Positions 1-64,000 of a stretch of 64,000 bases of DNA are shown here, piece after piece. The first letter of the stretch is position 1. Each line of letters begins with the position of its first letter. The translations under genes were made by a program, and so were the position numbers. The DNA is from Candidatus Omnitrophota bacterium (GTDB taxonomy: Bacteria; Omnitrophota; Gorgyraeia; Gygaellales; Profunditerraquicolaceae). Under the pieces are notes generated by a model. That model worked only from the letters and a program-made list of their open reading frames with translations, was not told the DNA's origin and made no database searches. The stretch spans positions 193,482-257,481 of the forward strand of contig JBAYMG010000001.1 in the NCBI GenBank assembly GCA_041663665.1, written 5' to 3'.

Positions 1-2
1 GC

Positions 3-221
3 GGCGGCTTAAGGTTTAATAACGATAGCTTTATTCCCACCTCAACTCCGGTAATGCTTGAAATTAATATATTAGACCGCATATTAAGGCCAGTGGGTAA
101 AGTGGCCTGGTCAACACCGTTGGCGCATTCCAGCCGTAGTCAAGTTGGCATAGAGTTCGTAGAGTTTAACGTAATTGAAAAGAACTATCTTAAAGAGTTT
201 GTAAATCTGCAACTTAGATAG
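3..221 (+). CDS. 5'-truncated CDS, probable C-terminal part of a PilZ-domain protein (enters from upstream of the window)
   Basis: Frame 3 is open from the window edge to TAG at 219-221. The C-terminal pattern (...VGIEFVEFNVIEKNYLKEFV) resembles the C-termini of the other PilZ proteins in this window. Confidence 0.35.
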   Translation, partial: GGLRFNNDSFIPTSTPVMLEINILDRILRPVGKVAWSTPLAHSSRSQVGIEFVEFNVIEKNYLKEFVNLQLR

Positions 222-252
222 TTGATTACAACTTAATGAAAGGAAATTAGTT

Positions 253-447
253 ATGTCACCCGAAGCTGTTAAAGAAGAAAAAACTGAAAAAAAGCCGAAA
301 GTCGAAAAACAAACAAACTGTCCGGCTTGTAATAAGCTGATCAAGAAGTTAAGAAGATATTATCGTAACGGTAAATTGTATTGTACTAAGAGATGTTGGA
401 AGACAGCTTTAAGTAAGTCAAAGGAAGAGGCCGCAAATAAAAAATAA
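253..447 (+). CDS. small Lys-rich zinc-ribbon protein (CPAC...C..RC), hypothetical
   Basis: Four Cys arranged CxxC-N15-CxxxC; lies between two PilZ genes. Confidence 0.4.
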   Translation: MSPEAVKEEKTEKKPKVEKQTNCPACNKLIKKLRRYYRNGKLYCTKRCWKTALSKSKEEAANKK

Positions 448-794
448 TGAAAACCCCTCAAGAACGCAGGTTGCATCCACGCCTGGATCACAAGTTACCG
501 CTTAATCTTGAAATTAACGATTATAATTTTTCTACTTCAACTCACAATATCAGCAGTGTGGGGGCATATTGCCATTTAGACAAATATATGCCGCCTTTTA
601 CCAAGATTTCGGTTAAGTTAAGCCTGCCGAGTAAGGGGAAGGCAGGCAAGAACATGATTATTGAATGTAAGGGCGTGGTAGTTAGAACCGAAGATGAAAT
701 TAAGGGCGGATTTAATTTGGCTATATTTTTTAATGAAATCCGTAACGAAGAGCGTAAGAAAATCATCCAGTACATAAGCCGGTTCCTGCCTTAA
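447..794 (+). CDS. PilZ domain protein (c-di-GMP receptor-like)
   Basis: RxxxR (RLHPR) followed by the N-I-S-S-V-G (D/NxSxxG) PilZ signature; single-domain, 115 aa. Confidence 0.6.
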   Translation: MKTPQERRLHPRLDHKLPLNLEINDYNFSTSTHNISSVGAYCHLDKYMPPFTKISVKLSLPSKGKAGKNMIIECKGVVVRTEDEIKGGFNLAIFFNEIRNEERKKIIQYISRFLP

Positions 795-803
795 AAAATC
801 AAA

Positions 804-1319
804 TTGGGTAAAATTAGCAATTATAATCCGCAAGCCAAACTTATAATCGGCCTCATCTATAAAGATGAGGCTGTTTTTATTAAGGCGTTAAGTAAGCTTA
901 AAAAAAAATTTGGTAAAATTGATTTTGAATCAGCGGTAAACGATTTTATTCACACGAATCATTACCAGGCAGAAATGGGCGGAGAATTAAAAAGAAAATT
1001 TGTAAGTTTTTCAAAGATGATTCGACTGCAAAATCTTTATCGGATTAAGCTTTTTACTAATCGGTTAGAAGGTAAATTTCTAGTTAACAAGTGCCGCTTG
1101 ATTAATATTGATCCGGGCTGCCTGGATTTAGCCAGGTTAGTGTTGGCAACGACTAAGGATTATGCCCATAGAATATTTTTAAGAAAAGGTATTTTTGCTG
1201 AGGTTACCTTAACTTATCGCGGAAATACTTTTTCCCGCAATGACTGGACCTATCCGGATTATTGTACTCAAGAGTATATTGATATTTTTAATCAAATCAG
1301 GAAGTTTTGTATTTTGTAG
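804..1319 (+). CDS. DUF4416 family protein
   Basis: FESAVNDFIHTNHY...INIDPGCLDLARLVLATTKDYAHRIFLRKGIFAEVTL...WTYPDY matches the DUF4416 pattern as I recall it. Confidence 0.55.
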   Translation: MGKISNYNPQAKLIIGLIYKDEAVFIKALSKLKKKFGKIDFESAVNDFIHTNHYQAEMGGELKRKFVSFSKMIRLQNLYRIKLFTNRLEGKFLVNKCRLINIDPGCLDLARLVLATTKDYAHRIFLRKGIFAEVTLTYRGNTFSRNDWTYPDYCTQEYIDIFNQIRKFCIL

Positions 1320-1346
1320 TAATTTTTATAAGTTAAGGATTTCAAG

Positions 1347-2306
1347 ATGCCAGATTATCCAGCATATTTAGCAGCGTATAAAAGTGGACGATTAAAACAG
1401 GTTACTGATCAGTTATTTTCTTCGCTTGCTTCATGTTCAATTTGCCCGCGTCATTGTAAAATTAACCGCTTGAAGGAGAAGTTGGGATTTTGTAAGACCG
1501 GCAGCCTTCCTGAAGTGTTCAGTTTTATGTGCCATCATGGTGAAGAGCCGCCGATTTCAGGAGAGCGGGGCAGTGGGACGATATTCTTTAGCCACTGCAA
1601 TATGGGTTGCATTTATTGTCAGAATTATGAATTTAGCCAACTGGGTAAAGGTAAAAAATATTCTTTTGAAGAATTGGCAAAAATAATGTTAAAATTGCAG
1701 GAAGATGGATGCCATAATATTAATTTAGTTACGCCTACTCATGTTCTGCCGCAGATACTTAAGAGCCTGGAGTTAGCTGTCGAGGCTGGGTTGAGAATAC
1801 CCTTAGTTTATAATACCAGTGGTTATGACCTGCCGGAAATTATAAAATTACTCGATGGCATAGTTGATATATATTTAGCCGATAGCCGTTATGGAGATGA
1901 CTTAATTTCTAAGGAGTTATCCGGGGCCTTAAATTACACAAAATTCAATCAGGAAGCGTTGGTTGAAATGCATCGGCAAGTAGGGGTACCTAAAATAACT
2001 TCCGAGGGATTGATTAAAAGAGGCTTGATTGTCCGGCATTTAGTGCTGCCGAATCGGGTTTCGGCTACTGAGAAAATAATGAAATTTATTGCCGAAAAAA
2101 TATCTGATGAAACCTATATCAGCCTAATGAGCCAGTATTTGCCTTATTATCAAGCATCTGGCAATACTAAGATTAACCGCCGTTTGAAAGCTTCCGAGTA
2201 TGAAGAAGCTAAACAGGTTTTAAAACATTATCATTTGCTTAATGGTTGGACTCAGGAGTCCTACGGCCAGGAGAGGTTTGCGGGGGTAAATATCAAACCT
2301 GTTTAA
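1347..2306 (+). CDS. radical SAM protein, PflX-like (putative pyruvate formate-lyase activating enzyme family)
   Basis: CNMGCIYCQN CxxxCxxC radical-SAM motif; length and N-terminal C-rich segment are typical of COG1313. Confidence 0.8.
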   Translation: MPDYPAYLAAYKSGRLKQVTDQLFSSLASCSICPRHCKINRLKEKLGFCKTGSLPEVFSFMCHHGEEPPISGERGSGTIFFSHCNMGCIYCQNYEFSQLGKGKKYSFEELAKIMLKLQEDGCHNINLVTPTHVLPQILKSLELAVEAGLRIPLVYNTSGYDLPEIIKLLDGIVDIYLADSRYGDDLISKELSGALNYTKFNQEALVEMHRQVGVPKITSEGLIKRGLIVRHLVLPNRVSATEKIMKFIAEKISDETYISLMSQYLPYYQASGNTKINRRLKASEYEEAKQVLKHYHLLNGWTQESYGQERFAGVNIKPV

Positions 2307-2307
2307 T

Positions 2308-2790
2308 ATGCCAAAAGAATCGATATTTAAGAAAGTTTTTAATTTTCTATTTGCCAAGCTTTTTATAATTAATGATTCTGCTCAAAAAATTGCTTTAGGC
2401 GTCGGCCTGGGAGTGTTTTCCGGTATATTGCCGGGTACCGGCCCGTTAATTGCTTTATTTTTAGCCTTTATCTTTAGGGCTAATCGGGCTGCAGCATTGA
2501 TCGGAAGTTTACTTACTAATACTTGGTTAAGTTTGATAACTTTTGTCTTTGCAATAAAAGTCGGGTCTGCTATACTAAAGCTAAATTGGCACAATGTTTT
2601 TCATAAAGCACAATTTTTGTTTAAAGACTTTAGTTTTACTAAATTTTTTAAACTTTCATTTTCCGATGTGTTTTTGCCGGTTTTGGTTGGATATCTGGCC
2701 ATTAGCTTAATTCTTGGGGTGTTTAGCTACTTAGTAACCTTGCTGATAATCAGGAGGAGATTTCATGGAAATAAAACAATTCACCCATAA
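2308..2790 (+). CDS. DUF2062 membrane protein
   Basis: IALGVGLGVFSGILPGTGPLIALFLAFIF hydrophobic core typical of DUF2062. Confidence 0.5.
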   Translation: MPKESIFKKVFNFLFAKLFIINDSAQKIALGVGLGVFSGILPGTGPLIALFLAFIFRANRAAALIGSLLTNTWLSLITFVFAIKVGSAILKLNWHNVFHKAQFLFKDFSFTKFFKLSFSDVFLPVLVGYLAISLILGVFSYLVTLLIIRRRFHGNKTIHP

Positions 2791-3313
2791 TGTTAGAAAT
2801 GATTTTAATCGCGCACTAAACCTGGCCGGGGTTATCCCTTTGCTTGTTTTTGTCTATTTGGTAATTGGTAAATTATCCAATTTCAATGTTTTAGCCGGTG
2901 AGATCGGTTATATTATAATAGCCACGATCGGAGTATTTGCAACCGGGGTTGTTGTGGGCAGAAGAATGCTGGAATCAGTTACCTTTAAATTGATCGATGA
3001 TAACCAGAAAATTTTGTCGATGCAGCAAGAGCTGATTGAAAAGAACCGCTTAGCGGCAATTACTGAAACCGTGTTGACTTTAGGGGACCAGATTAATAAC
3101 CCTCTTTTATCGATTAGCGGCAATCTTGAGCTTTTGGATTCCGAGATCAAGGAAGCCGGCGCAGGAGAGAAATTAAAAAACAGAATCCAGACCATGCGGA
3201 ATAATTTTCAAAAAATCCGCGAGGTGACTGATAAGATGTCGAAATTAACCAAAGCGGAACTAGTGACAATTCATGGCAATACCCGGATGATTGATTTAAG
3301 TAAGTCAGTTTAA
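2765..3313 (+). CDS. membrane protein with degenerate HisKA/DHp-like helix (His replaced by Asp), no ATPase domain
   Basis: 2 TM segments, then LAAITETVLTLGDQINNPLLSISGNLELL, which resembles the H-E-I-x-N-P-L phosphoacceptor box but with D-Q instead of H-E. Confidence 0.4.
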   Translation: MEIKQFTHNVRNDFNRALNLAGVIPLLVFVYLVIGKLSNFNVLAGEIGYIIIATIGVFATGVVVGRRMLESVTFKLIDDNQKILSMQQELIEKNRLAAITETVLTLGDQINNPLLSISGNLELLDSEIKEAGAGEKLKNRIQTMRNNFQKIREVTDKMSKLTKAELVTIHGNTRMIDLSKSV

Positions 3314-3373
3314 CTGGTAATAATTTTTGAGAGTTGAAATATAATTTTAAACTAATAATTACCGGAGGAAGTA

Positions 3374-4120
3374 ATGAAAAGACTTGTTTTATTAAGGCAT
3401 GGAGAAAGTACTTGGAATAAAGAAAATCGTTTTACCGGTTGGACTGATGTTGATTTGTCAGAAAAAGGATTACAGGAAGCAAAGCAAGCAGGGGAGCTGC
3501 TTAAAAAAGAAGGTTTTGCCTTTGATGCTGCTTATACTTCAGTATTAAAACGGGCAATCCGCACTCTTTGGATTACTCTTGATGAAATGGATTTGATGTG
3601 GATACCGGTATATAATTCCTGGAGGCTTAATGAAAGGCATTATGGGGCATTGCAGGGATTGAATAAATCAGAGACTGCTTTAAAATATGGGGAAGAGCAG
3701 GTTTTAATCTGGAGAAGAAGTTATGATATCCCTCCGATGGCGTTGGATAAGAATGATGTGCGTTATCCGGGGCAAGATTTACGTTATAAAGGCCTTAAAG
3801 CCAAAGAATTACCCTTAACTGAATGCCTGAAAGATACCGTTGCCAGATTTTTACCTTATTGGCATAAAACTATTGCCCCGGCGGTTAAAAGCGGAAAGCG
3901 GGTAATTATTGCGGCGCATGGGAATTCCTTGCGGGCATTGGTTAAATACCTGGATAATGTTTCTGAAGAAAAAATCGTCGGCTTAAATATTCCTACGGCT
4001 ATGCCTTTAGTTTATGAGCTAGAAGATAATTTAAAACCAATCAGGAGCTATTATCTAGGTGATCCGGAAGCAGTTAAAAAAGCGATGGATGCGGTTGCTA
4101 ACCAAGGCAAGGCAAAGTAA
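3374..4120 (+). CDS. gpmA: 2,3-bisphosphoglycerate-dependent phosphoglycerate mutase
   Basis: [29 protein letters not shown] histidine-phosphatase signature; 248 aa. Confidence 0.9.
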
Positions 4121-4130
4121 GGAGGCAGGT

Positions 4131-4256
4131 ATGGCGGTAAAAAAAGTTGGTGAAAAATATCGTTGTAATGTTTGTGGAAATGAAGTAGCCGTAACTAAAG
4201 TTGGCGGCGGAGAATTGGTTTGTTGTAATGCACCGATGGAGAAAACCGGAGAATAA
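4131..4256 (+). CDS. desulforedoxin (41 aa rubredoxin-type FeS4 protein)
   Basis: [37 protein letters not shown] closely parallels Desulfovibrio desulforedoxin (..[27 protein letters not shown]). RBS GGAGG lies 6 nt upstream of the ATG at 4131. The track's 4059 start overlaps gpmA and is rejected. Confidence 0.75.
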
Positions 4257-4269
4257 GAAAGGACAAGTG

Positions 4270-4848
4270 ATGACTAAATCAATTAAGGGTTCAAAAACAG
4301 AACAGAATTTACTAAAATCTTTTGCGGGTGAATCTCAGGCTCGTAATCGCTATACATATTTTGCTTCCGTAGCAAAAAAAGCAGGTTTTGAGCAAATTGC
4401 CAATATTTTTATTGAGACCGCGGAAAATGAAAAAGAACATGCCAAGATTTTTTTTAAATACCTTGAAGGCGGAGACTTAGAAATTACCGCTAGTTATCCT
4501 GCCGGTCAGATTAAGGATACTAAGGTTAATTTACAAGAGGCGGCAGCCGGCGAAAATATGGAATGGACTCTGCTTTATGCCGATTTTGCTAAAATTGCGC
4601 ATGATGAAGGTTTTGCGGAAATTGCCCGCTCTTTTGAGCAGGTCGCTAAGGTTGAAAGATTTCATGAAGCCAGGTACCGTAAGTTAATTAATAACATTTC
4701 AGAGAATGAAGTGTTTAAAAAGACCTCCACGGTTAAATGGCATTGTACTAACTGCGGCTATGTGTTTGAAGGCTTGGAAGCTCCTAAGGAATGTCCTGCC
4801 TGTAAGCATCCACAGGCATATTTTGAATTATTGGCTGAAAATTATTAA
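4270..4848 (+). CDS. rbr: rubrerythrin (diiron ferritin-like domain plus C-terminal rubredoxin)
   Basis: [22 protein letters not shown]...[10 protein letters not shown] diiron motifs and C-terminal CTNCGY...CPACKHP; the start at the ATG after AGGA fits better than the track start at 4201. Confidence 0.9.
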
Positions 4849-4884
4849 AAAGATTGCTGTGTAGTTCTAAAGGAGGAGGAGAAG

Positions 4885-5334
4885 ATGAAAAAAGTGGTTT
4901 TAGTTTTCACGAGTATTGTTTTCTGTTTTTTCTTAGCGGGTATTTGTATTGTATTTGCACAAGACCAACTGCCGATAAACACTCAGCCAATTAAGCCTGC
5001 CAGCGTTCAAAAGAAGGCCCAAGTAAAAGAAAAAATAACTCAGGACCCTAATTTACCTCCAAAATTAAATAACGATACTGTTTCTTCCGAGTCAGAAGAG
5101 TCGTCGAAAACTAACTTAAATGATTTTCCTCTACCTCCGGTTATCATCTCTACAAGTTCTGATCAAGAAGCTATAGATAAAGAAAATCTTCCTCCTCCGT
5201 TTGTGCCAACAGCTGGCACTGAGGGTGATCTGGCCTCGGATCAAAGCAATAGTCCTTCGGAGCCAGTGAATGAATCGGAAGCCAATTTAGAAAGTAAATC
5301 AAAACTACCAAGCGATACAGTAAGTTCTAAATAG
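4885..5334 (+). CDS. secreted Ser/Pro/Glu-rich low-complexity protein
   Basis: N-terminal signal peptide/TM, then a low-complexity acidic tail. Confidence 0.45.
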   Translation: MKKVVLVFTSIVFCFFLAGICIVFAQDQLPINTQPIKPASVQKKAQVKEKITQDPNLPPKLNNDTVSSESEESSKTNLNDFPLPPVIISTSSDQEAIDKENLPPPFVPTAGTEGDLASDQSNSPSEPVNESEANLESKSKLPSDTVSSK

Positions 5335-5403
5335 ATAAAGCCGGCAATATGAAAAATGGATTAAATGTTGGAGTGGATAAGTAAATTACCTAACGGAGGA
5401 TAA

Positions 5404-5583
5404 ATGATTGATATCGAGGTACTTAAAATCGCCTTAACCAAAGAGGAGGGCGCAATTGAAACATATCAGAAAATGCTAATGGAACATCCTGGTTTAGAAG
5501 AATTACTTTCACTTTTAATATCTGAGGAGCAAAAACATAAAAGATTGATTGAGAATAAGATTATGTCTTTAACTCGAGAATAA
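5404..5583 (+). CDS. possible 59-aa ferritin-like/rubrerythrin-like mini-protein (below the ORF-track cutoff)
   Basis: MIDIEVLKIALTKEEGAIETYQKM...EEQKHKRLIE resembles one EExxH helix pair of ferritin-like proteins; GGAGG lies upstream. Confidence 0.25.
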   Translation: MIDIEVLKIALTKEEGAIETYQKMLMEHPGLEELLSLLISEEQKHKRLIENKIMSLTRE

Positions 5584-5668
5584 TATCTATATGTTTCAAA
5601 GAATATTGCTAGTTTTAAGTTGTCTGGTGCTGTTTGTTTTGGGAGTTGATCTTAAGGAGGGGTTAGCG

Positions 5669-6097
5669 ATGAAAATATCCAGCCCGGTTTTTGAAAATAA
5701 CACATTAATGCCGGAAAAATTCTCTTGTCTGGGGGAAGGCGTGAATCCTGAATTAACCATTAAGGATATTCCTGAAGGAACTGCGAGCCTGGCATTGATA
5801 GTGGATGATCCTGATGCATTGTTTAAGACGTATGTCCATTGGGTGCTTTATGATATTCCGCTTATTACGCGTATCGAAGAAAATAGCACTCCGGGCACTC
5901 AAGGTGTTAATACCTCAGGTGGAGTTGATTACGTAACTCCTTGCCCTCCCAGCGGAACCCACCGCTATTTTTTTAAAGTTTATGCCCTGGATAAAATGGT
6001 TGGTTTAGATGGGTTAAGTAAGCAAGATCTGGAAAATGAAATGCAGGGGCATATATTGGATAAAGCAGAATTAGTTGGTTTGTATAAAAAGAGATAG
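5669..6097 (+). CDS. YbhB/YbcL family Raf-kinase-inhibitor-like (PEBP) protein
   Basis: ALIVDDPDA...YVHWVLYDIP...GTHRYFFKVYALD PEBP signature. AAGGAGGGG RBS precedes the ATG at 5669; the alternative start at 5591 would add a signal peptide. Confidence 0.8.
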   Translation: MKISSPVFENNTLMPEKFSCLGEGVNPELTIKDIPEGTASLALIVDDPDALFKTYVHWVLYDIPLITRIEENSTPGTQGVNTSGGVDYVTPCPPSGTHRYFFKVYALDKMVGLDGLSKQDLENEMQGHILDKAELVGLYKKR

Positions 6098-6116
6098 AAT
6101 TAAAAAGGAGAAAATA

Positions 6117-6521
6117 ATGTTGAATTTGTCCAGGTACTTGTTTTTATCTATTTGTTTAGTTCTCTTAAGCAGCATTAATCTTTTTGCTCAAACCGTTAAT
6201 CCGGGCCCATCTGGCTCAAAATTTCAGAAGATAGATATAAATAAAGACGGTTCGATTACCGCAAGCGAAATGCAGGCGTACCAAGTGCAAAGATTTCAAG
6301 AGTTGGATCAAGACAAGAATGGGGCTATTGATTCTAAGGAGATCTCAGCTGATACAACTAAAATGCACCAGGCAGCTGATGCCGACAAGGATGGACAGGT
6401 AACTCAAGCCGAAGCAGCTTCACAATTTAGCCAATATTTTAAAGAGATGGATAAAAATAATGATAATAAAGTATCTGAGGCTGAGTATACTGATTATTGG
6501 AAGGGTATATATAAATTCTAA
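6117..6521 (+). CDS. secreted EF-hand calcium-binding protein (4 DxDxDG-like loops)
   Basis: Signal peptide, then DINKDGSITASE, DQDKNGAIDSKE, DADKDGQVTQAE, DKNNDNKVSEAE; RBS AAAGGAG lies 7 nt upstream. Confidence 0.65.
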   Translation: MLNLSRYLFLSICLVLLSSINLFAQTVNPGPSGSKFQKIDINKDGSITASEMQAYQVQRFQELDQDKNGAIDSKEISADTTKMHQAADADKDGQVTQAEAASQFSQYFKEMDKNNDNKVSEAEYTDYWKGIYKF

Positions 6522-6549
6522 AATAGCCAGAAGGATGAATCCATAAAAT

Positions 6550-8169
6550 ATGATTACAGTAAGCAATCTGTCATTGCAATTTGGGCAGCGCAAACTTTTT
6601 TCCGGGGTTAATCTTGTTTTTTCTCCCGGGAATTGTTATGGTTTAATCGGTGCTAATGGTTCGGGTAAGTCCACTTTTTTAAAGATTCTTTCAGGTGAGA
6701 TTGATTCAAGCAGCGGTGAAGTTACCGTATCTGCAGGTAAACGTGTTTCAGTCCTAAAACAGGATCAGTTTGCTTTTGACCAGTGTCCGGTCCTGATCAC
6801 AGTAATTATGGGCCATAAGCGTTTATACGAGATTATGGCCGAAAAGGAGGCAATTTATGCTAAGACTCCTTTTACCGATGAAGATGGAATGCATGCCTCA
6901 AGGCTTGAGGAAGAGTTTAGCGAATTAGAGGGTTGGAATGCTGAGAGTGATGCGGCTAAATTATTAAGCGATCTGGGTATCGAGGAGCCGTTGCACAACG
7001 CCCAAATGTCTAGTCTGGAAGCCGGTCAAAAATTCCGGGTTCTCCTGGCACAGGCTTTATTTGGAAATCCGGATATCCTGCTTTTGGATGAACCAACTAA
7101 CCATTTGGATGTCGAATCCAGTATGTGGCTAGAAGAGTTCCTTTGCGATTTTCAGAATATTGCTATTGTTGTTTCGCATGACCGGCATTTTTTAGATAAA
7201 GTTTGTACTCATGTGGCGGATATTGATTTTGCTAAAATTCATCTTTATGCCGGTAATTATACCTTTTGGTCAGAAGCCAGCCAGCTTGCCGCCAGGCAGC
7301 GCAGTGAAACTAACAAGAAGGTGGAAGAGAAACGTAAAGATTTGAAAGATTTTATTATGCGTTTTTCAAATAATGCCTCTAAGTCGCGCCAGGCAACCAG
7401 TCGTAAAAAAATTCTCGAGAAACTTACAATCGAAGATATTGAGCCGTCCTCACGTAAATATCCTTATATTAATTTTGAGCCTGAGCGGGAAGCCGGCAAT
7501 GACCTTTTGAGCATTACTAATTTATCCAAAAATGTTGATGGTGAGGTTATGTTTGAACGGTTAAACTTGACAATCCATAAAGGCGATAAAGTTGCTTTTG
7601 TCGGGCCAAATGACCTTTCCAAGACAATGCTTTTTGAAATTTTGATGAACCAAGCAAGTGCTGATAGCGGGGTTTTTAAATGGGGGGCATCTACCCGCAG
7701 AGCGTATTTTCCAAAAGATAACTCAGCATTTTTTAATTCAGATTTAAATATCCCTGACTGGCTTAGAAGTTATTCCCCCAATACGGAGGAAGAGTATATC
7801 CGTTCCTTTTTAGGGCGGATGCTTTTTTCAGGAGAGGAGGCGCTTAAGCCGGTGAAAGTTTTATCCGGAGGAGAAAAGGCCCGGTGTATGTTTACGCGGA
7901 TGATGGTTATTCAGCCTAATGTGATTGTCTTGGATGAGCCGACTAACCATTTGGACTTGGAATCGATCACTTCTTTAAACCGCGGTTTGGCTAAATTTCA
8001 AGGAACAATTTTATTTTCTTCCCATGACCATGAGCTGGTTCAGACAGTGGCAAATCGAATTATTGAGATTACGCCCAAAGGTTACATTGACCGAATCAGC
8101 ACAACTTTGGATGAATATTTAGCTAATGAACAAATCAAAGAGCAGCGACATGAGCTCTATAAAAAATAA
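6550..8169 (+). CDS. ABC-F family ATPase (EttA/Uup-like translational factor; two ABC cassettes, no TMD)
   Basis: Two Walker A motifs (GANGSGKST; and a second cassette) and LSGGEK signatures; 539 aa. Confidence 0.9.
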   Translation: MITVSNLSLQFGQRKLFSGVNLVFSPGNCYGLIGANGSGKSTFLKILSGEIDSSSGEVTVSAGKRVSVLKQDQFAFDQCPVLITVIMGHKRLYEIMAEKEAIYAKTPFTDEDGMHASRLEEEFSELEGWNAESDAAKLLSDLGIEEPLHNAQMSSLEAGQKFRVLLAQALFGNPDILLLDEPTNHLDVESSMWLEEFLCDFQNIAIVVSHDRHFLDKVCTHVADIDFAKIHLYAGNYTFWSEASQLAARQRSETNKKVEEKRKDLKDFIMRFSNNASKSRQATSRKKILEKLTIEDIEPSSRKYPYINFEPEREAGNDLLSITNLSKNVDGEVMFERLNLTIHKGDKVAFVGPNDLSKTMLFEILMNQASADSGVFKWGASTRRAYFPKDNSAFFNSDLNIPDWLRSYSPNTEEEYIRSFLGRMLFSGEEALKPVKVLSGGEKARCMFTRMMVIQPNVIVLDEPTNHLDLESITSLNRGLAKFQGTILFSSHDHELVQTVANRIIEITPKGYIDRISTTLDEYLANEQIKEQRHELYKK

Positions 8170-8187
8170 AAAAAGAGGGAGTTCCTG

Positions 8188-8763: not shown

Positions 8764-8782
8764 AAAAAAGTTTAGATAGCTA

Positions 8783-9550: not shown

Positions 9551-9594
9551 AGCAGATCCGGGGTTTTGGATAAAAGATTAAGAAAGGATAAAAT

Positions 9595-18239: not shown

Positions 18240-18240
18240 T

Positions 18241-54006: not shown

Positions 54007-54053
54007 GTTCTATTGTTTTACTCTGTTTTTTTTAGAAGAAGGTAGAAAATAAT

Positions 54054-55385: not shown

Positions 55386-56307
55386 TTATTCTTTGTACTA
55401 AAGAGTGCCGGACTACATCTGAGCCTGAAAAGTAAATGAATTTTATTCCTTCGATTGTTTTAAGTATTTCCTGAGCCTGGAGCAACCCGATAGGTTTGCC
55501 TAGCGGGAGATCGCTTTGGGTCAAGTCTCCGGTAATAACTGCTTTGGAATCAAAACCCAGGCGGGTTAAAAACATTTTCATTTGTTCGGCAGTACAGTTT
55601 TGTGCCTCATCTAAAATGATGAAAGCGTCATTTAAAGTCCTGCCGCGCATATAAGCGAGCGGGGCGACCTCGATTATTCCGGTTTCAATATATTTCTCAA
55701 TACGTTCCGCATCAATCATGTCATAAAGAGCATCATAGAGCGGACGGAGATAAGGTGAAATTTTTGCCTGCATGTCACCGGGAAGAAATCCCAGTGATTC
55801 ACCGGCTTCAATCGCCGGCCGGGTAAGAATAATTCTGCGTACTTCCTGTTTTTTTAATGCCTCGACTGCGCAGGCCATTGCCAGATAAGTTTTTCCGGTT
55901 CCTGCCGGTCCGATACCAAAAACAATATCATGTTTTCTAATTGCTTCGACGTATTGTTTTTGTCCGTCGGTTTTTGGCCCAATTTGTTTCCCGCCAAAAG
56001 TCCGGGTAACATTGTTATCTAAATGCCTGATTTGCTCGGTTTTTGGCCCTTTTTTTAGCTCAGAGATTAAGTAAGTCAAATCTTTTTGTCCGATTTCACG
56101 GTTCCCGGAGCGCCTTGCTTCAAGTAAATATTCAATAAGCTCTCCTGCTTTTTTAATGTTCGCCGCAGTTCCGGTTAATTTTAAGTGTTCACCTCTTAGG
56201 GTAAGCTTGATTTTAAATTCATTTTCGATGGATTTAATATTCGCGTCATAAGAACCGGCAATCCCTTGTGCTTCTTCCTGAGAAAGTAATTGGATTATTT
56301 TATCCAT
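55357..56307 (-). CDS. phoH: PhoH-like ATPase
   Basis: GPAGTGKTYLA Walker A, ILDEAQN Walker B. Confidence 0.9.
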   Translation of the reverse strand: MDKIIQLLSQEEAQGIAGSYDANIKSIENEFKIKLTLRGEHLKLTGTAANIKKAGELIEYLLEARRSGNREIGQKDLTYLISELKKGPKTEQIRHLDNNVTRTFGGKQIGPKTDGQKQYVEAIRKHDIVFGIGPAGTGKTYLAMACAVEALKKQEVRRIILTRPAIEAGESLGFLPGDMQAKISPYLRPLYDALYDMIDAERIEKYIETGIIEVAPLAYMRGRTLNDAFIILDEAQNCTAEQMKMFLTRLGFDSKAVITGDLTQSDLPLGKPIGLLQAQEILKTIEGIKFIYFSGSDVVRHSLVQRIIEAYEKTTQ

Positions 56308-56364
56308 TAACCCAGATCCTTATTTTGTTTTTTTTGCAAAGATTTCTTAGATTTTTATTGAAGC

Positions 56365-56928
56365 TTATTTAAGGTTCTCTTTTGGTTCTTCCAATTTTTC
56401 AGCCTCTACTTTTAATCCGCCTTCGGAAGGAATATTTAAAATTTGTCCGGGATAAAGCTTGTCTGGTCCGCGTAAAGTATCTTTATTTGCCTGGTAAATT
56501 TTGTACCATTTTTTAGTTGTGCCAAAGAATTTTTTGGAAATTTTTTGTAGAGTATCGTTTTTGCTTACTGTATATTTTTCAAAGCTTGTGCTTCCGCTGG
56601 TGCTTTCGATCGGAGCTTCTTCTTGATTTTCGGTTACTACCGGTTCCTCAGCCATGTTTGAATTGGCTGCCAAGGGAGTAGTTGCTGGGCATATAGCTGC
56701 AGATTTTTTGGCTATTCCTAACTCGACCTCAAAAACTCTTGTAGTGCGTGTTTGTGTGCGCTCTTTAGGTTCTGGGGCAGTACCTATAAAGTAGCCGCGG
56801 TTTCCAGATGTTGGAGTTAAGTCTTGATCAACCCGGTCACGGGTTAAATTATAAGTCCTGGCCACACATCCGGATAATGCCAGTGTGGATGTTAATACGA
56901 AAATTCCTGCTAATTTGAATCTGTTCAT
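56365..56928 (-). CDS. LysM-domain lipoprotein
   Basis: Lipobox LSGC; C-terminal YTVSKNDTLQKISKKFFG...GQILNIP LysM. Confidence 0.65.
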   Translation of the reverse strand: MNRFKLAGIFVLTSTLALSGCVARTYNLTRDRVDQDLTPTSGNRGYFIGTAPEPKERTQTRTTRVFEVELGIAKKSAAICPATTPLAANSNMAEEPVVTENQEEAPIESTSGSTSFEKYTVSKNDTLQKISKKFFGTTKKWYKIYQANKDTLRGPDKLYPGQILNIPSEGGLKVEAEKLEEPKENLK

Positions 56929-56929
56929 T

Positions 56930-58321
56930 TTACTTTCCTCCCTGTTTAATGGTTATACCTAATTCTTTTAATTGTTTATTATCAACCTCTGTCGGAGCGC
57001 TAGTTAGTGGGCAAAATGCAGCTGAAGTCTTGGGAAATGTAATTACTTCGCGGATACTTGATTCGTTAGATAGTATTGTCAAAAGCCTGTCTAGCCCGAA
57101 AGCAACTCCTCCGTGCGGAGGTGCGCCAAACTGGAAAGCTTCAAGTAAAAAACCAAAGCGTTTAATTGCCTCTTCTTTTTCAATACCAATAATTTTAAAA
57201 ATTTTCTCCTGGAGCTCTTGGCGGTGGATCCTTATAGAGCCGGACCCTAGTTCCATTCCGTTTAAGACTAAATCATAAGAACGTGACTTGACTTTATCCG
57301 GTTGGTTTTCTAAATTTTCCAAATCTTCTGCTGAAGGCGCAGTAAAAGGATGGTGCTCGCTTTCCCAGCGTTTTTCTTCAGTATTAAACTTGAAAAGTGG
57401 AAAATCCACTACCCAGCAGAAAGCAAAATCGGCTTTTGTTTCCGGCCTTAAGTCAGGTTTATCGCACTTATATTTTTCCATTGATTCTTTATAGCTTATA
57501 CGTTTAAAGGGTATAGGAATGTCAATATTTTTTAATTCCTTAAAAATTAATTGCATTAATCCTTCAGTTAAAACAAAAACATCTTCTTCGTCTATAAAAG
57601 ACATTTCTATATCTAATTGAGTAAATTCCGGCTGACGATCAGCTCTTAGGTCTTCGTCGCGGAAACATTTGGCGATCTGGTAATATTTTTCAGTTCCGGC
57701 AACCATTAGGATTTGCTTAAATAATTGCGGTGATTGCGGCAAAGCAAAAAAATGCCCGGGATTTACCCGCGAAGGAACTAAATAATCTCGCGCTCCTTCC
57801 GGGGTTGATTTAGTTAAGATTGGAGTTTCGCATTCTATAAATTCCTTGGCGCCTAAATAATTACGAATGATTTTGTAAAGATTACTGCGTAGAAGCAGGT
57901 TATTAAAAACCTTGGTCCTTCTTAAATCAAGATAGCGGTATTTAAGCCGTATTTCTTCGGTTATATCAATATCGTCTTGGATTTCAAACGGAGGCGTATT
58001 GCTGGGATTTAGAATTTCAAGTTCCTTAGCTAAGATTTCTATTTCGCCGGTACCTAGTTTTTGATTAATTGTATTTCCGGGGCGCTTATTTACCATCCCG
58101 TTCAATTTAATTACGAATTCACTGCGCAATTGCTGGGCTAATTCATAAGCACTCCCAGATTCTTTAGGGATAAAAACAACTTGGGTTAAACCGGTGCGGT
58201 CACGAATATCGATAAAGACTAATTTGCCATGGTCGCGCCTTTTAGCAACCCAACCACAAAGTGTAACTACTTTTCCTGCATCGGCGGCACAAAGCTGGCC
58301 GCAGGTATGTGTCCTTAGCAT
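56930..58321 (-). CDS. aspS: aspartate--tRNA ligase, bacterial type but lacking the GAD insertion domain
   Basis: LRTHTCGQL start; motif 2 FRDEDLRADRQPEFTQLD; DKPDLR is followed after ~10 aa by WVVDFPLF...HHPFT, whereas E. coli AspRS has ~130 aa of GAD between these; 463 aa. Confidence 0.85.
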   Translation of the reverse strand: MLRTHTCGQLCAADAGKVVTLCGWVAKRRDHGKLVFIDIRDRTGLTQVVFIPKESGSAYELAQQLRSEFVIKLNGMVNKRPGNTINQKLGTGEIEILAKELEILNPSNTPPFEIQDDIDITEEIRLKYRYLDLRRTKVFNNLLLRSNLYKIIRNYLGAKEFIECETPILTKSTPEGARDYLVPSRVNPGHFFALPQSPQLFKQILMVAGTEKYYQIAKCFRDEDLRADRQPEFTQLDIEMSFIDEEDVFVLTEGLMQLIFKELKNIDIPIPFKRISYKESMEKYKCDKPDLRPETKADFAFCWVVDFPLFKFNTEEKRWESEHHPFTAPSAEDLENLENQPDKVKSRSYDLVLNGMELGSGSIRIHRQELQEKIFKIIGIEKEEAIKRFGFLLEAFQFGAPPHGGVAFGLDRLLTILSNESSIREVITFPKTSAAFCPLTSAPTEVDNKQLKELGITIKQGGK

Positions 58322-59553
58322 TTTAATTCCTCAATTAAATTTTGGATAGGTACTTCTTTTTGCGTGCTTTTTGACATGTCTTTGACTGAAATAATATTCT
58401 TTTTTAGCTCATCGTCACCCAGAATTAAAACTAGGCTTGCTTTAGCGTCATTAGCTGAGCGCATAGCCGCTTTTAGTGATCTGTTTAAGTAATCTGTATC
58501 TGCCGGAATTTCCGCATTTCTTAGCTGATTTAATATTTTTAATCCGGCGGATTTGGCAGTTTCCCCCAGAGTGATAAGATAGACTAGTTTTTTATCCGGA
58601 TTTTGAATTAGGTTAGTTTTAGCTAAAAGAAGGCGTTCTACGCCAAAAGCAAAGCCTACCCCTTCTAGTTCCGGGCCGCCTAAATCTTTTACTAAATTGT
58701 TGTATCTTCCTCCTGCGCCAATAGCGTCCTGGCTGCCTAAATCCGGATGGCTGATTTCAAATACAGTACGGTTATAGTAATCCAGGCCGCGCACAAGATG
58801 TGGAGCAATTTCAAATTTAATATTTAAATTATTTAATCCATCTTTAACCTGGCTAAAATGTTGAAGGCAATCCGGGCAAAGATGGCTTTCTTGCGGGCAA
58901 AATTGTTTGACTATTTTTTGACAGTTATCGTTCTTACAATCTAACACCCGTAAGACATTAGTTTTAATCCGCTCCTGACAATCGCAGCACAGTTCTTCTG
59001 ATTTTTTTTGGAGTTCTTCTTTTAGATTAAGACTTAATGCTTGCTTATCTTTTAAGCAGCCTAAGCTGTTAATTTTTATTTTATAATTGGTAATTCCGAA
59101 AGCCTTAAGTAATTGTTCAGCTAGGCTGATTATTTCTACATCTAAAGCAGCACTTGAGGAGCCAATTGCTTCGCAGCCGATATGATGAAACTGGCGCAGT
59201 CTTCCTTTTTGTGGGCGTTCAAGCCTGAACATCGGGCCGATATAATATAATTTTACGAAACCAACTTCTTTGTCTAAATTATTTTCTAGATAACTGCGTA
59301 CAATCGAAGCAGTACCTTCCGGCCGTAAGGCGTAAGTGTCATCTTGATTGTGAATAAGGAACATTTGCTTTTGTACGATTTCAGTGGTTGAGCCTAAGGT
59401 ACGGTTAAAAAGTGCTGCGTCTTCAATTATGGGAGTGCGGATTTCCTGATAGTTGTAAAGTGAGAAAATTTTACGTGCTCTTGCTTCAACTGTCTGCCAT
59501 GAAGAAGCCTCCTCAGGCAGAATGTCTTTGGTACCCGGGACTCGTTTAAACAT
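58315..59553 (-). CDS. hisS: histidine--tRNA ligase
   Basis: RVPGTKDILPEE...LRPEGTASIVR class II HisRS motifs. Confidence 0.9.
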   Translation of the reverse strand: MFKRVPGTKDILPEEASSWQTVEARARKIFSLYNYQEIRTPIIEDAALFNRTLGSTTEIVQKQMFLIHNQDDTYALRPEGTASIVRSYLENNLDKEVGFVKLYYIGPMFRLERPQKGRLRQFHHIGCEAIGSSSAALDVEIISLAEQLLKAFGITNYKIKINSLGCLKDKQALSLNLKEELQKKSEELCCDCQERIKTNVLRVLDCKNDNCQKIVKQFCPQESHLCPDCLQHFSQVKDGLNNLNIKFEIAPHLVRGLDYYNRTVFEISHPDLGSQDAIGAGGRYNNLVKDLGGPELEGVGFAFGVERLLLAKTNLIQNPDKKLVYLITLGETAKSAGLKILNQLRNAEIPADTDYLNRSLKAAMRSANDAKASLVLILGDDELKKNIISVKDMSKSTQKEVPIQNLIEELKC

Positions 59554-59556
59554 AGC

Positions 59557-59829
59557 TTACTTGATTTTTTGTTTCATTTCCAGGCCAGCTTTGAAGATAA
59601 CTACTTTTCTGGGCGGGACAGGAATTACCTGATTGGTGCGCGGATTTCTGCCTGTGCGGCTTCTTCTTTGCTTTACTTTAAATACGCCAAAATTACGTAA
59701 TTCTATTTTTTCGCCTCTAACTAAGGCGTCAACAATGCAATCAAAGGTTTTTTGAACAACTTCTTTAACGTCAATCTGTTTTAAGTTGGTTGCGTCAGAT
59801 ACTTTTAAGACAATATCTTTTTTTGTCAT
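59557..59829 (-). CDS. hup: HU/IHF family DNA-binding protein
   Basis: 90 aa; RNFGVFKVKQRRSRTGRNPRTNQVIPV arm motif. Confidence 0.85.
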   Translation of the reverse strand: MTKKDIVLKVSDATNLKQIDVKEVVQKTFDCIVDALVRGEKIELRNFGVFKVKQRRSRTGRNPRTNQVIPVPPRKVVIFKAGLEMKQKIK

Positions 59830-59943
59830 ACCAGTGCCTCCCTATATGTGACCTTGTTACTTGCTAACTATAATAACAGCAAAAAGTTACAGTGTCAAGA
59901 AATATTGAGCATAAAAAGCTTTTATCCGGTAAAATGCCAGGAG

Positions 59944-62900
59944 TTATATTACCAGCGATAATCTTTCTTCCCCTAATAATTCATCTAAATCAGCGATAAG
60001 TTTCTCGTTCGGCCGGACATAAAGGTTTTCGCCTACGAGCAGCTGAACTCGGGATCTTGATGGTGTATCGAGGCGTAAATATACGGGAATACTTCCGCGG
60101 TACTCTTCGAGCATTATTTTTAAGGATTCAAAGATATTTTCTTTTATACCGGATAAATTAATGCTCATAGCGGTAATTAATTTATAAATATCTTCAAAAG
60201 GAAAAAGGTCCTCAACAATTATTTTCGGAGTTTCCTCCTTTAGGTCTAGAATGCCGCGAATATGTACTATACTGTTTGGCTGGATATAGCTGCCAATTTT
60301 TGCGAAAGCACGAGGAAAAACTAGTACTTCAACTGATCCGTCTAGATCCTCTAATTTTAATATTGCCATTTTTTCTTGCTTGGCGCGTGTAACTGTGTGT
60401 TTAATCTTAACAATCAGCCCGACTATTTTAATTTGATCCTGGTCTTTATGCTCATGCAGGCTAGACATCGAGCAGGAGACAAAGCGTTTGAGTTGTTTAG
60501 CGTAGCGGGCTAAAGGATGTCCGGAGACATAAAAACCCAGCATATCTTTCTCAAAAGCAAGCAATTGCGGTTCAGGCCACTCTTTAATTTCAGGTGAATT
60601 GTTGGTAGTTTCTCCAAACCCGTTATCGTTATTTAGGATCTGATCAAAGAAAGAAAGCTGTCCGCTTGATTTTTCTCTTCTGGTTCTTTGGGCACCCTCT
60701 AATACCGTATCCAGGCTGGCAAACATTTGGGCTCGGGCCTTGCCAAAATAATCTAAAGCTCCGCATTTAATTAAACTTTCTAAAACTTTTCGATTAGCCA
60801 GCCTTAAATCTATACGGCTGCAGAGGTCATCTAATGATTTAAATTTTGAATCTTTTTTTTCGTTAGCAATAGATTCAGCTGCCCCCTGGCCGACATTCTT
60901 TATCGCTAAAAGTCCGAAACGAATGGTTGAGGTGTCTGCTACTTTAAAGAGCGGTTCGCTTTCGTTTATGTCCGGCGGTTGTACTTTTAAACCCATTCGC
61001 TCTGCTTCATTAACGTATTCGACAATTTTATCAGTATTATCACGCTCGGAAGTAAGTAGGGCAGTCATAAATTCCACAGGATAGTTTGCTTTTAAGTAAG
61101 CAGTGCGGTAGGAAATTAAGGCGTAGGCAGTTGAATGTGATTTATTAAAACCATAGCCTGAGAAATATTCAATTAAATCAAATATTTTGCTGGCAGTGCT
61201 CTCTTTAATTCCATTTTTAATGCTACCATTGATAAAATTAGTCCGCTCTCTTTCCATTACTTCGGGAATTTTTTTACCCATGGCTTTACGTAAAATATCT
61301 GCCTGGGCTAGTGAAAATCCCGCCAAGGCGGATGCAATTTGCATAATTTGTTCCTGATAAACCATGATACCGTACGTTTCTTTAAGTATAGGTTCCAGCT
61401 TAGGGTGTTCATATTTTATCGGGATAATTCCGTGTTTACGTTTCATAAAATCATCCAACATTCCTGAACCAATTGGCCCCGGTCGGTACAACGCCAATAG
61501 TGCGATCAGGTCTTCGAAGCGCTCAGGAATAAGTTTTTTAAGCAAATCGCGCATTCCTGAGCTTTCAACCTGGAATATTCCGATAGTGTGGCTTGAAGCA
61601 AGCAACTTGTAAGTATTTTGATCATCTAAGGATATTTTTTCAAAGTTAACTTCAATACCTTGAGTTTGTTTAATTAATTTTAAAGTTTCGCTGATTACGG
61701 TTAACGTTCTTAAGCCCAGGAAATCAACTTTGAGTAAGCCGATTTTTTCAAGTGTTCCCATGCTGTAGCCGGTTGTGATTTGATTGTCAGTAGTTCTAAA
61801 CAGCGGCATATAATTGTTTAAAGGTTTATCCGTAATAATTACTCCGGCGGCATGGACTGAAGCATGCCGGTTTAATCCTTCTAAGGATAAGGCAATGTTA
61901 ATCAGTTTAGTTATCTGTGGGTCATTTTTGTAAAGATTATTCAGTTCGGTTTCGCTTTCCAGGGCTTTTTTAAGAGTCATGTCCAAATCAGCAGGAATCA
62001 TTTTAGCGATTCGATCAACTTCTGAATAGGGCACTCCCATAACTCTGCCGACATCCCTGACTACCCCCCTGGCCTGCATTGTTCCAAAAGTAATAATTTG
62101 AGCGACATTATCCTTCCCGTATTTTTTAGTTACGTAATCAATTACTTCCTGCCGGCGTTCATAGCAGAAATCAATATCAATATCCGGTAAGCCCATGCGT
62201 TCAGGATTTAAAAATCTTTCAAAAATAAGCCCATACTTTAGCGGATTTAAATCAGTGATCCCTAAAAGATAACTGACTAAACTTCCTGCGGCTGATCCTC
62301 TGCCCGGGCCAACGGGAATATCCTGGCTTTTAGCATGAGAAATGAAATCCCAGACAATCAGAAAGTAACTGACAAAGCCCATATCTTTTATAATTTTTAA
62401 TTCATGGTTAAGGCGTTTTTGTATCTCTGGGGTACTCTCGAGTTCATTTTTAACTAATCCTTTTTTGCAAAGCCCGAGTAAAAATTCTTCTTTTTCTATT
62501 CCTTCCGGAGGAGTGTATTTCGGCAGGTGCATTTTGGTAAAATCTAATTCCAGGTTACATCTTTGAGCGATTTCTAAGGTGTTTTTTATTGCCTCAGGGT
62601 AACTTGAAAATATTTTTTTCATTTCATCCGGAGAACGGAAATAAAATTCTTCCGTTTGAAAGCGCATATGTTTTGGGTCATCCAGAGTAGTCTGGGTTTG
62701 GATGCAGAGCAATGCTTCATGCGCAGCGGCCCGCTCTTTAGTCGGATAATGCACGTCATTAGTAGCAACTAAAGGGATGTTAAGTTCTTTCGAAATTTTA
62801 ACCATGCCTTCGTTAACAATTTTTTGTTCCGGAATAGAGTTAGCTTGAATTTCCAAGAAAAAATTATTTTTTCCCAGAATATTTTGATAGTTATCAGCAG

Positions 62901-63381
62901 CTTTTAAAGCGTCGTTAAAACGTTTCTGCAATAGGAGCCAGGCAACTTCTCCTTTGAGGCAGGCGGATGATCCGATTAATCCTTTAGCATGCTGCGCCAG
63001 GACTTCTTTGTCGATTCTGGGGCGATAATAAAATCCTTCGAGATACCCAATGGAAACTAACTTCATTAAGTTGTTATATCCGTCTTCATCACGAGCTAAG
63101 AGTATCAAATGGTTGGCGGCGTCTTCGATTCCCCCATTACCTTTATTAAACCTGCTTTGCGGTGCGATATAAACTTCGCATCCGATAATTGGCTTGATTC
63201 CTGCTTTGCGTGCTTCAAGGTAGAATTCAACTGCTCCAAACATGTTACCATGGTCAGTAATTGCCAGTGAACCCATCTTAAAATTTTTAGCAATAGAAAG
63301 TATTTCGGGTATACGACAGGCTCCGTCAAGAAGACTGTATTGGGTATGTAGGTGCAGGTGGATAAAATCAGAACCAGGCAT
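59944..63381 (-). CDS. dnaE: DNA polymerase III alpha subunit
   Basis: 1145 aa; N-terminal PHP (FIHLHLHTQYSLLDG), palm and OB domains. Confidence 0.95.
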   Translation of the reverse strand: MPGSDFIHLHLHTQYSLLDGACRIPEILSIAKNFKMGSLAITDHGNMFGAVEFYLEARKAGIKPIIGCEVYIAPQSRFNKGNGGIEDAANHLILLARDEDGYNNLMKLVSIGYLEGFYYRPRIDKEVLAQHAKGLIGSSACLKGEVAWLLLQKRFNDALKAADNYQNILGKNNFFLEIQANSIPEQKIVNEGMVKISKELNIPLVATNDVHYPTKERAAAHEALLCIQTQTTLDDPKHMRFQTEEFYFRSPDEMKKIFSSYPEAIKNTLEIAQRCNLELDFTKMHLPKYTPPEGIEKEEFLLGLCKKGLVKNELESTPEIQKRLNHELKIIKDMGFVSYFLIVWDFISHAKSQDIPVGPGRGSAAGSLVSYLLGITDLNPLKYGLIFERFLNPERMGLPDIDIDFCYERRQEVIDYVTKKYGKDNVAQIITFGTMQARGVVRDVGRVMGVPYSEVDRIAKMIPADLDMTLKKALESETELNNLYKNDPQITKLINIALSLEGLNRHASVHAAGVIITDKPLNNYMPLFRTTDNQITTGYSMGTLEKIGLLKVDFLGLRTLTVISETLKLIKQTQGIEVNFEKISLDDQNTYKLLASSHTIGIFQVESSGMRDLLKKLIPERFEDLIALLALYRPGPIGSGMLDDFMKRKHGIIPIKYEHPKLEPILKETYGIMVYQEQIMQIASALAGFSLAQADILRKAMGKKIPEVMERERTNFINGSIKNGIKESTASKIFDLIEYFSGYGFNKSHSTAYALISYRTAYLKANYPVEFMTALLTSERDNTDKIVEYVNEAERMGLKVQPPDINESEPLFKVADTSTIRFGLLAIKNVGQGAAESIANEKKDSKFKSLDDLCSRIDLRLANRKVLESLIKCGALDYFGKARAQMFASLDTVLEGAQRTRREKSSGQLSFFDQILNNDNGFGETTNNSPEIKEWPEPQLLAFEKDMLGFYVSGHPLARYAKQLKRFVSCSMSSLHEHKDQDQIKIVGLIVKIKHTVTRAKQEKMAILKLEDLDGSVEVLVFPRAFAKIGSYIQPNSIVHIRGILDLKEETPKIIVEDLFPFEDIYKLITAMSINLSGIKENIFESLKIMLEEYRGSIPVYLRLDTPSRSRVQLLVGENLYVRPNEKLIADLDELLGEERLSLVI

Positions 63382-63410
63382 GAAGAAAAGCTTAAAGTTA
63401 TAGAGCTATT

Positions 63411-64000
63411 TTATTCCCACTCGATTGTTGCCGGAGGTTTAGAGCTTATATCGTAAACAACTCGATTGATCCCGCGTACTTCATTGATAATGCGGTTAGA
63501 TATTTTTTCTAAAACTTCATAGGGTAATTTTACCCAATCAGCGGTCATTCCGTCAAAGCTGGATACGCAGCGAAGTGCGGCAACGTTTTCATAGGTACGC
63601 TCGTCTCCCATAATTCCAACGCTTTTAATGGGAAGCAATATTGCAAATGATTGCCAAACCTGATCATATAAACCGGCTTTTGAAATTTCTTCAATAACAC
63701 GTTTGTCAGCTTCGCGTAAAAGATCAAGCCTCTCTTTAGTTACCTCGCCGATAATTCTGACTGCTAGCCCTGGGCCAGGAAATGGCTGGCGTTGTACGAT
63801 ATTATCAGGCAGCCCAAGTTGCCTGCCCATTTGGCGGGCTTCATCTTTAAATATTTCTCTTAACGGCTCAATAAGCTTGAGTTTCATCTGAGCCGGTAAT
63901 CCTCCGACATTGTGATGGCTTTTGATTTTTCTGCTTGGGCCTCCGGTTGGCGATACCGATTCAATTACATCCGGGTAAAGTGTTCCTTGGCCTAAAAATT
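63411..64000 (-). CDS. guaA: GMP synthase, C-terminal part (gene continues beyond the window end)
   Basis: Frame stays open to position 64000, giving ...HHNVGGLP..., then [23 protein letters not shown]...[11 protein letters not shown], the GMP synthase C-terminal dimerisation domain. Confidence 0.85.

Follow-up and report, generated by a model that had tools for sequence, protein, structure and literature searches.

Introduction

In Omnitrophota genomes, the genes of each replichore lie almost all on one strand, as reported in a 2023 preprint by West-Roberts et al., in which the chromosome arms are equated with the replichores from the bulk cumulative GC skew. The stretch studied here, referred to as the window, comprises 64,000 nucleotides of contig JBAYMG010000001.1 (assembly GCA_041663665.1) of a Candidatus Omnitrophota bacterium; in it, two gene arrays of opposite orientation converge on a dif site of the XerC/XerD type. 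Given the one-strand-per-replichore order was already reported for the phylum, this architecture is not new: the window comes from the same phylum and shows the same near-absolute use of one strand per arm, here at the terminus end of both arms. It is unlike the layout described by West-Roberts et al. in that skew resolved by codon position sets the orientation switch apart from the mutational shift point.

The distance between dif and the GC-skew shift point has been surveyed in hundreds of genomes, where it amounts to 0-1.39% of the genome (1 sigma) with outliers to 3%, and termination was described as taking place "near but not at" dif (Kono et al. 2011, PMC3025954). Like the XerC/XerD-dif sites of E. 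coli and B. subtilis, the site in the window is 28 bp long (11+6+11), is intergenic, and is placed where the arms converge; it is present in one copy in 82 kb, with arms that are conserved and a center that is variable among relatives. Unlike those sites, it is separated from the compositional shift point by some 35 to 50 kb or more, a distance that could belong to the upper part of the published range.

In Firmicutes and Mollicutes, about 75-87% of the genes are on the leading strand, a bias linked to PolC. The window shares with these groups long runs of co-oriented genes and a G-rich leading strand. Its bias is, within the stretch considered, more absolute than theirs, and, in contrast with Firmicutes, the polymerase seen in it is of the DnaE type alone, and its apparently head-on genes form a contiguous block of ~45 beside dif rather than being scattered over the lagging strand.

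Gene orientation around the strand switch

Genes were called by mechanically listing the open reading frames (ORFs) of the window, which was then tiled with the longest non-overlapping ones. The tiling yielded 45 consecutive non-overlapping ORFs on the + strand and 30 ORFs on the - strand (32942-63887; the last of them, guaA, exceeds the window end), to which a tRNA-Arg(CCT) gene is added on the - strand. The coding density of the window is 96%, and the only sizeable gap at the switch, where the + and - arrays converge, has 289 bp. A promoter and terminator scan of this gap found no terminator-like hairpin, and promoter-like matches were at chance level; an Rfam scan returned nothing besides the tRNA. 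Coordinates are collected in Table 1.

The original prediction for this stretch, made from its letters, counted ~48 genes on the + strand and ~33 on the - strand. These counts are slightly too high, but the complete co-orientation claimed for each side and the coordinates given for the switch were confirmed by the tiling, with 45/45 genes on the + strand and 31/31 on the - strand. This replichore-type co-orientation extends over 15 further - strand genes in a contig of the same genome, ENA contig k141_1696094 (L205), which was found via UvrB, is 100% identical to the window over 4195 bp (59806-64000), and adds 17,779 bp rightward. Crude tiling of L205 gave one 100-aa antisense ORF, which overlaps groES.

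Under random gene orientation, the observed co-orientation has p ~2^-73. Adjacent ORFs in 51 related Omnitrophota loci of 8-21 kb are on the same strand at a rate of 85.5%, and, given this rate, a run of 45 has p ~0.001 and a run of 31 has p ~0.009. Since 18 of these 51 loci contain zero minority-strand ORFs, long one-strand runs are normal for the phylum. Hence the bias, which had been called extreme, is real as a polarity but usual for the phylum, according to both the related loci and the literature. The same prediction had named similar one-strand blocks elsewhere in the genome, unrelated to origin or terminus, as what would weaken a replichore interpretation. Long one-strand blocks are indeed common in relatives, yet they do not count against it as framed, because whole replichores on one strand would yield them.

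The placement in Candidatus Omnitrophota was obtained from orthologues of the epimerase gene adjoining the junction. That the assembly joined two unrelated contigs at 32.8 kb is extremely improbable. Although Logan contig L002 (SRR6484787) ends inside the 289-bp gap, at window position ~32753, it independently covers the epimerase gene, the DUF134 gene, dif, and 100 bp beyond; in addition, the order DinB-dif-DUF134 was found in more than ten independent assemblies of relatives, and L205 matches the right end of the window with 100% identity. Given the span of L002 and the gene order kept in relatives, a chimera was rejected. The end of L002 ~100 bp past dif might reflect strain variation or low coverage.

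The dif site

The XerD-type arm of the site faces the left gene array, and its XerC-type arm faces the DUF134 gene. In comparison with the reference sequences, taken from Kono et al. 2011 (PMC3025954), the site is identical to the B. subtilis dif at 24/28 positions and to the E. coli dif at 21/28, and its right (XerD) arm is identical to both at 10/11. It has the architecture of XerCD-type sites (28 bp, 11+6+11, imperfect inverted repeat), the two 11-bp arms being self-complementary at 7/11 positions. It is also the single match at seven or fewer mismatches in 81.8 kb (the window plus its 17.8-kb extension), with 0 in 100 shuffles. The dif-like site on which the original prediction was centered is thus real and, within these 81.8 kb, unique.

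The motif is found downstream of the epimerase and DUF134 genes in five GTDB genomes (L003, L008, L012, L023, and L038), with its arms kept and its 6-nt center variable; in a sixth genome (L029), the right XerD-type arm alone is retained and the left arm has diverged. A metagenome scan with the dif arms as pattern matched more than 120 contigs, ~30 of which are Omnitrophota relatives. These ~30 loci are arranged as DUF134-dif-DinB/LexA or as DUF134-dif-DUF2062/radical-SAM/DUF4416/PilZ, again with varying dif centers. Among the related loci having ORFs on both sides, genes converge on dif in 21 of 27 by crude ORF tiling. Architecturally, the terminus region that was predicted is borne out by a conserved dif with the gene-strand switch exactly there, and by the 21 of 27 scorable related loci that are alike.

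Neither a tyrosine recombinase nor FtsK was found among the Pfam-annotated proteins of the window; xerC, xerD, and ftsK are not among its genes, and the recombinases for dif are assumed. The FtsK-orienting polar sequences (KOPS) and SpoIIIE recognition sequences (SRS) considered, GGGNAGGG, GAGAAGGG, and GAAGAAG, are either too rare or fully confounded with the coding strand, and no dif-centered polarity was separable from them. An integrative mobile element exploiting Xer (IMEX), or another element integrated at dif, was rejected, as there is no second dif-like site in the 81.8 kb and the left arm contains no mobile-element families. A mobile-element origin of the left arm was rejected as well, given its Pfam families are those of ordinary chromosomal genes and no second dif is present.

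The pattern TTCCTATAAT-N5-TTATGTTAACT also occurs beyond Omnitrophota, in many contigs of 22-29% GC from gut and rumen metagenomes (examples are L081, L088, L091, L104, L109, L116, L130, L143, and L154). ORFs at these loci mostly converge on the site, and several of the loci present a canonical skew sign change at dif.

Nucleotide skew across the dif site

Left of dif, bulk GC skew ranges from +0.15 to +0.28 (about +0.20) and bulk AT skew is ~0; right of it, the GC skew is ~0 rather than negative, and the AT skew is ~-0.13. Given this pattern, the purine excess flips with the genes, while the keto (G+T) excess stays on the + strand.

The two components are told apart at synonymous positions. 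Read in coding sense, the GC skew at third codon positions (GC3 skew) is +0.252 in the left genes, with 44/45 positive, and -0.245 in the right genes, with 30/30 negative, hypotheticals included. Four-fold sites concur with the GC3 skew in both arms. Two-fold codons have a C/(C+T) of 0.20 and a G/(A+G) of 0.41 in the left arm; in the right arm, the corresponding values are 0.40 and 0.20, the exact complements. The synonymous composition of the + strand is therefore identical on either side of dif (G>C, T>A), and intergenic DNA is consistent with this + strand bias once the effect of ribosome-binding sites is allowed for. Around the site itself, the bins of 30-35 kb and 35-40 kb have + strand GC3 skews of +0.22 and +0.33, respectively, and the sign does not change at 32.87 kb.

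Hence the synonymous sign change by which compositional skew marks a terminus is absent at dif, and genes are co-oriented with the G-rich strand in the left arm but not in the right arm, out to ~49 kb from dif, over which distance the coding-sense GC3 skew of the right arm runs from -0.245 to about -0.05. The original prediction held that the genes on both sides are co-directional with the forks and that the replichores meet at 32.8 kb; this is not supported, as the synonymous skew does not invert at the junction. Given the composition of the + strand is the same across dif, the two arms have not both been long-term residents of the leading strand.

A comparison with relatives separates the strand from the genes it carries. 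Orthologues with C>G in the window have G>C in the genomes of many other Omnitrophota, and two relatives, L139 and L145, show the reverse polarity across dif. Of the nine relatives having 500 or more codons to either side of dif, four resemble the window, two show the reverse polarity, and none shows the canonical one; in the remaining three, the skew is too weak for a call. These nine are phylogenetically related, and their flanks are short. As orthologues differ in sign between genomes and L139 and L145 have the opposite polarity, the asymmetry resides in the DNA strand rather than in the genes.

In L135, another relative of reversed polarity, the + strand GC3 skew drops from ~+0.4 to ~-0.1 at ~8 kb from dif, on the side away from DUF134, although the signal is noisy. 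The gene strand is unchanged at this drop, which may represent a nearer shift point on the other arm.

An origin of the skew difference in the codon usage or expression of the two gene sets, under which both arms could be leading-strand, is very unlikely. As such an explanation would have it, housekeeping genes abound in the right arm and accessory genes, some of them lineage-specific, in the left. Yet the sign is common to 30/30 right and 44/45 left genes, the two-fold codon frequencies are exact complements, the same orthologues are opposite in sign in other genomes, and the skew shifts with distance from dif inside one co-oriented housekeeping block. The explanation was rejected on the mirror-image codons, the sign reversals of orthologues, and this dependence on position.

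Position of the skew shift point

In the 81.8-kb composite of the window and L205, each of the thirteen 5-kb bins up to 65 kb has a + strand GC3 skew between +0.20 and +0.33; the bins past 65 kb yield +0.19, +0.10, +0.12, and +0.04. A change point is best placed near 67 kb, with a likelihood ratio (LR) of 21. The fall begins ~35 kb right of dif and comes near zero at ~49 kb (~82 kb in window-equivalent coordinates). The skew analysis that was proposed as a check on the replichore reading thus finds no sign change at dif and a decay 35-49 kb to its right.

Syntenic relatives with identical gene order also have their genes on one strand, namely 27/27 in L203/L206, 27/27 in L199/L207, and 21/22 tiled ORFs in L200 (a count that covers the L200 locus and leaves out the L200/L210 composite). 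In L203/L206, the binned coding-sense skew is -0.15 close to dif and +0.09 at the hom-thrC-apgM end; in L199/L207, it rises from -0.14 to +0.045, about one standard error above zero. In L200/L210, which was scored per gene alone, the four distal genes have +0.04 to +0.15. Zero is thus crossed ~30-45 kb from dif in two or three syntenic relatives while the gene strand is unchanged, the distance being read from the gene order of the window as the fetched stretches are without dif. Relatives with 13-17% DnaE divergence have the same polarity and a similar offset. Judged from composition, the shift point is real; it falls, at a distance from dif, within a gene block that stays on one strand throughout.

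In a bulk cumulative G-C plot, all that this offset produces is a plateau between 33 and 65 kb; coding strand and replication have effects of similar magnitude, each ~0.1.

A canonical terminus, with forks meeting at or near dif, all 75 genes co-directional, and the present skew a relic, yet to re-equilibrate, of a recently moved origin or terminus, appears unlikely to us. It would agree with the coincidence of dif and the exact orientation switch, and with a layout that is typical of the phylum, for which complete genomes were reported with textbook cumulative GC skew. However, the synonymous composition of the + strand is the same across dif (0.20/0.41 vs 0.20/0.40) and its skew is flat over the thirteen 5-kb bins, which argues for an equilibrium rather than a transient state. 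The polarity and a similar offset are common to relatives at 13-17% DnaE divergence, and, even with a relic skew, the right block must have been head-on for long in the past.

Proposed replication of the region

The leading strand is, as a general rule, rich in G and T. Given this rule, the + strand would serve as the leading strand throughout the window, and transcription of the right arm would be head-on. We consider it fairly likely that the locus is a genuine terminus region in which the forks meet, averaged over time, in a zone ~35 to 50 kb or more right of dif. The chromosome arms, with nearly one strand per arm, are observed to converge on a conserved dif. The fork from the left would normally pass this site and meet the opposing fork in a broad zone ~35-50 kb or more to the right, so that the time-averaged replication terminus would be offset from both dif and the gene-orientation switch. 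The ~45 genes between dif and the meeting zone (from DUF134 to dnaE, guaAB, groESL, uvrB, and valS) would be transcribed against the fork. The orientation switch may stay at dif because an inversion of DNA close to dif would turn round its FtsK-orienting polarity too.

The decay of the skew over 15-20 kb would fit termination by fork collision without a fixed trap, or a meeting point drifting with arm lengths. In showing a gradual decay instead of a step, the locus resembles what fork-collision and fork-trap models (Kono et al. 2012, PMC3317982) lead one to expect of a variable meeting point, although the models are carried over to it by analogy, and no Tus/Ter or RTP-type element was found, none having been searched for. 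Unidirectional replication is disfavored, as the skew decays, and in relatives reverses, 30-50 kb from dif.

Several points weigh against a meeting zone to the right of dif. The direction of the forks is deduced from composition only. In the genome of the window itself, the available sequence ends, at a skew of +0.04 +/- 0.08, before a sign change is reached, and in the relatives the skews are weak (0.05-0.15), the zero crossing is 10-20 kb wide, and its distance from dif is obtained by synteny. It is awkward, moreover, that ~45 head-on genes, including dnaE, groESL, and aminoacyl-tRNA synthetases, would have been kept through species-level divergence; given the phylum is otherwise near-totally co-oriented, such tolerance of head-on genes is hard to accommodate in a purely conflict-driven view. 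Finally, the offset is within 3% of the genome only if the genome has ~1.7 Mb or more. The offset from dif to the shift point may still be inside the published dif-to-skew distances, and a new mechanism is not required for it.

Polarity may instead be set by dif and chromosome segregation (with FtsK-orienting sequences or SMC loading and ori-to-ter translocation as candidates) and not by conflict; the switch would then track dif irrespective of the fork-meeting point, with a small cost of head-on transcription in these slow-growing cells. We regard this as improbable, although much of what is found near dif agrees with it: the switch is at dif in 21/27 scorable loci, the skew crosses dif either way (four loci like the window, two reversed, none canonical, three weak), and essential, highly expressed genes remain head-on across species. 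On the other hand, the genes that lie far from dif in relatives occupy the G-rich strand, as do those of many other Omnitrophota loci, which is what ordinary co-orientation predicts. A special mechanism is also unneeded, since the offset of 35-50 kb may be within the published range if the genome has ~1.7 Mb or more; besides, KOPS-like motifs are inseparable from coding-strand effects, and the scored loci are mutually related with short flanks. The broader form of the proposal, in which Omnitrophota polarity as a whole would be anchored to dif and segregation, with forks routinely ending tens of kb to either side, dozens of essential and highly expressed genes kept head-on in stable blocks, and conflict not maintaining polarity, seems a doubtful one; the ordinary model fits the data as well.

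The headline of the original prediction is a correct rediscovery of a reported property of the phylum. What is added here is a dif site and orientation switch ~50 kb from the shift point (~30-45 kb in two or three relatives), a conserved and apparently head-on block, and a polarity reversed in other relatives. These results suggest that, in fully strand-polarized genomes, bulk GC-skew plots can hide the site where forks meet, because the coding-strand effect dominates them, and that codon-position-resolved skew is needed. Uncultivated Omnitrophota would hence offer a natural test of whether replication conflict maintains co-orientation, given the apparently head-on block includes dnaE, groESL, a sigma factor, and five aminoacyl-tRNA synthetases. 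Should the offset be general and the switch always follow dif, a driver of gene polarity other than replication would be indicated.

Gene content of the two arms

Table 1. Features of the 64-kb window, with coordinates in window positions.
Feature	Position	Strand	Basis or remark
Left arm, 45 ORFs	54..32652	+	ORF tiling, Pfam
Accessory block, ~27 kb	3374..29806	+	tblastn synteny
LexA-MEDS-102-aa hypothetical-DinB (Y-family polymerase) cassette, abutting dif	29868..32652	+	Pfam, synteny
Non-coding gap, 289 bp	32653..32941	no strand	Between converging gene arrays
dif, XerC/XerD-type, 11+6+11: ACTTCCTATAA-TGTACA-TTATGTTAACT	32857..32884	-	Similarity to known dif
Right arm, 30 ORFs and tRNA-Arg	32942..64000	-	ORF tiling, Pfam
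DUF134 gene, conserved right-hand neighbor of dif	32942..33301	-	Pfam, synteny
tRNA-Arg(CCT), co-oriented with right arm	41196..41271	-	Rfam
dnaE, DNA polymerase III alpha, 1145 aa	59944..63381	-	27-30.5 kb from dif; predicted head-on zone

The genes of the left arm, some of them ordinary chromosomal genes and others accessory, run in the same direction as the G/T-rich (leading-type) strand. They encode three PilZ proteins, DUF4416, radical SAM, a gpmA-like (phosphoglycerate-mutase-like) protein, rubrerythrin, ABC-F, CstA, MsrAB, a PIF1-like helicase, TPR proteins, LexA, MEDS, and DinB. The ~27-kb accessory block sits between DUF2062/radical-SAM and LexA/dif and is missing from L139, L145, and L146; judging by this synteny, it is a gene gain near the terminus, in the left arm alone. 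LexA, the 102-aa ORF, and DinB adjoin dif in more than ten related metagenome loci.

The right arm contains mostly housekeeping genes and is strictly syntenic over ~50 kb in at least four genomes. In composition, its genes are of the lagging-strand (head-on) type. Outward from dif, it encodes DUF134, the epimerase, a ParA-like/CBM48 protein, GH57, an outer-membrane protein, PHP, apt, sigma-70, and ppdK, then glyQS, panB, Nramp, an MgtE-like protein, apbE, panE, recO, ybeY, 7TM-HD, phoH, and LysM, and distally aspS, hisS, HU, dnaE, and guaA. The genes added by L205, all on the - strand, are guaA, guaB, groEL, groES, coaX, uvrB, nadC, valS, a leuA-like gene, ask, apgM, DFP, thrC, and hom. In looking for sequence beyond the window, exact-protein look-ups of its dnaE and DinB products and of P0001 returned no record, those of two other window proteins led to Logan contigs of 2-3 kb alone, and a homologue search with a 202-aa C-terminal fragment of ValRS returned short fragments alone.

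The position of dnaE near the terminus, which had been singled out as notable, holds, and its coding-sense GC3 skew is -0.18. A dnaE homologue, P0095 (1602 aa), carries intein/LAGLIDADG domains. In the metagenome-assembled genome JAQTQQ01 (L209 18395-21106), dnaE is called in two parts (106 and 763 aa), perhaps owing to a frameshift or to an error of assembly.

As listed, the panB ORF (46872-47678) shares 86 bp with a downstream 268-aa ORF (47593-48417), which probably starts further in. At 35103-38434, a ParA/MinD-type ATPase with a C-terminal glycogen-binding module (AMPK1_CBM/CBM48) adjoins the GH57 glycoside hydrolase, and, from their domains, the pair may constitute a system that positions glycogen granules.

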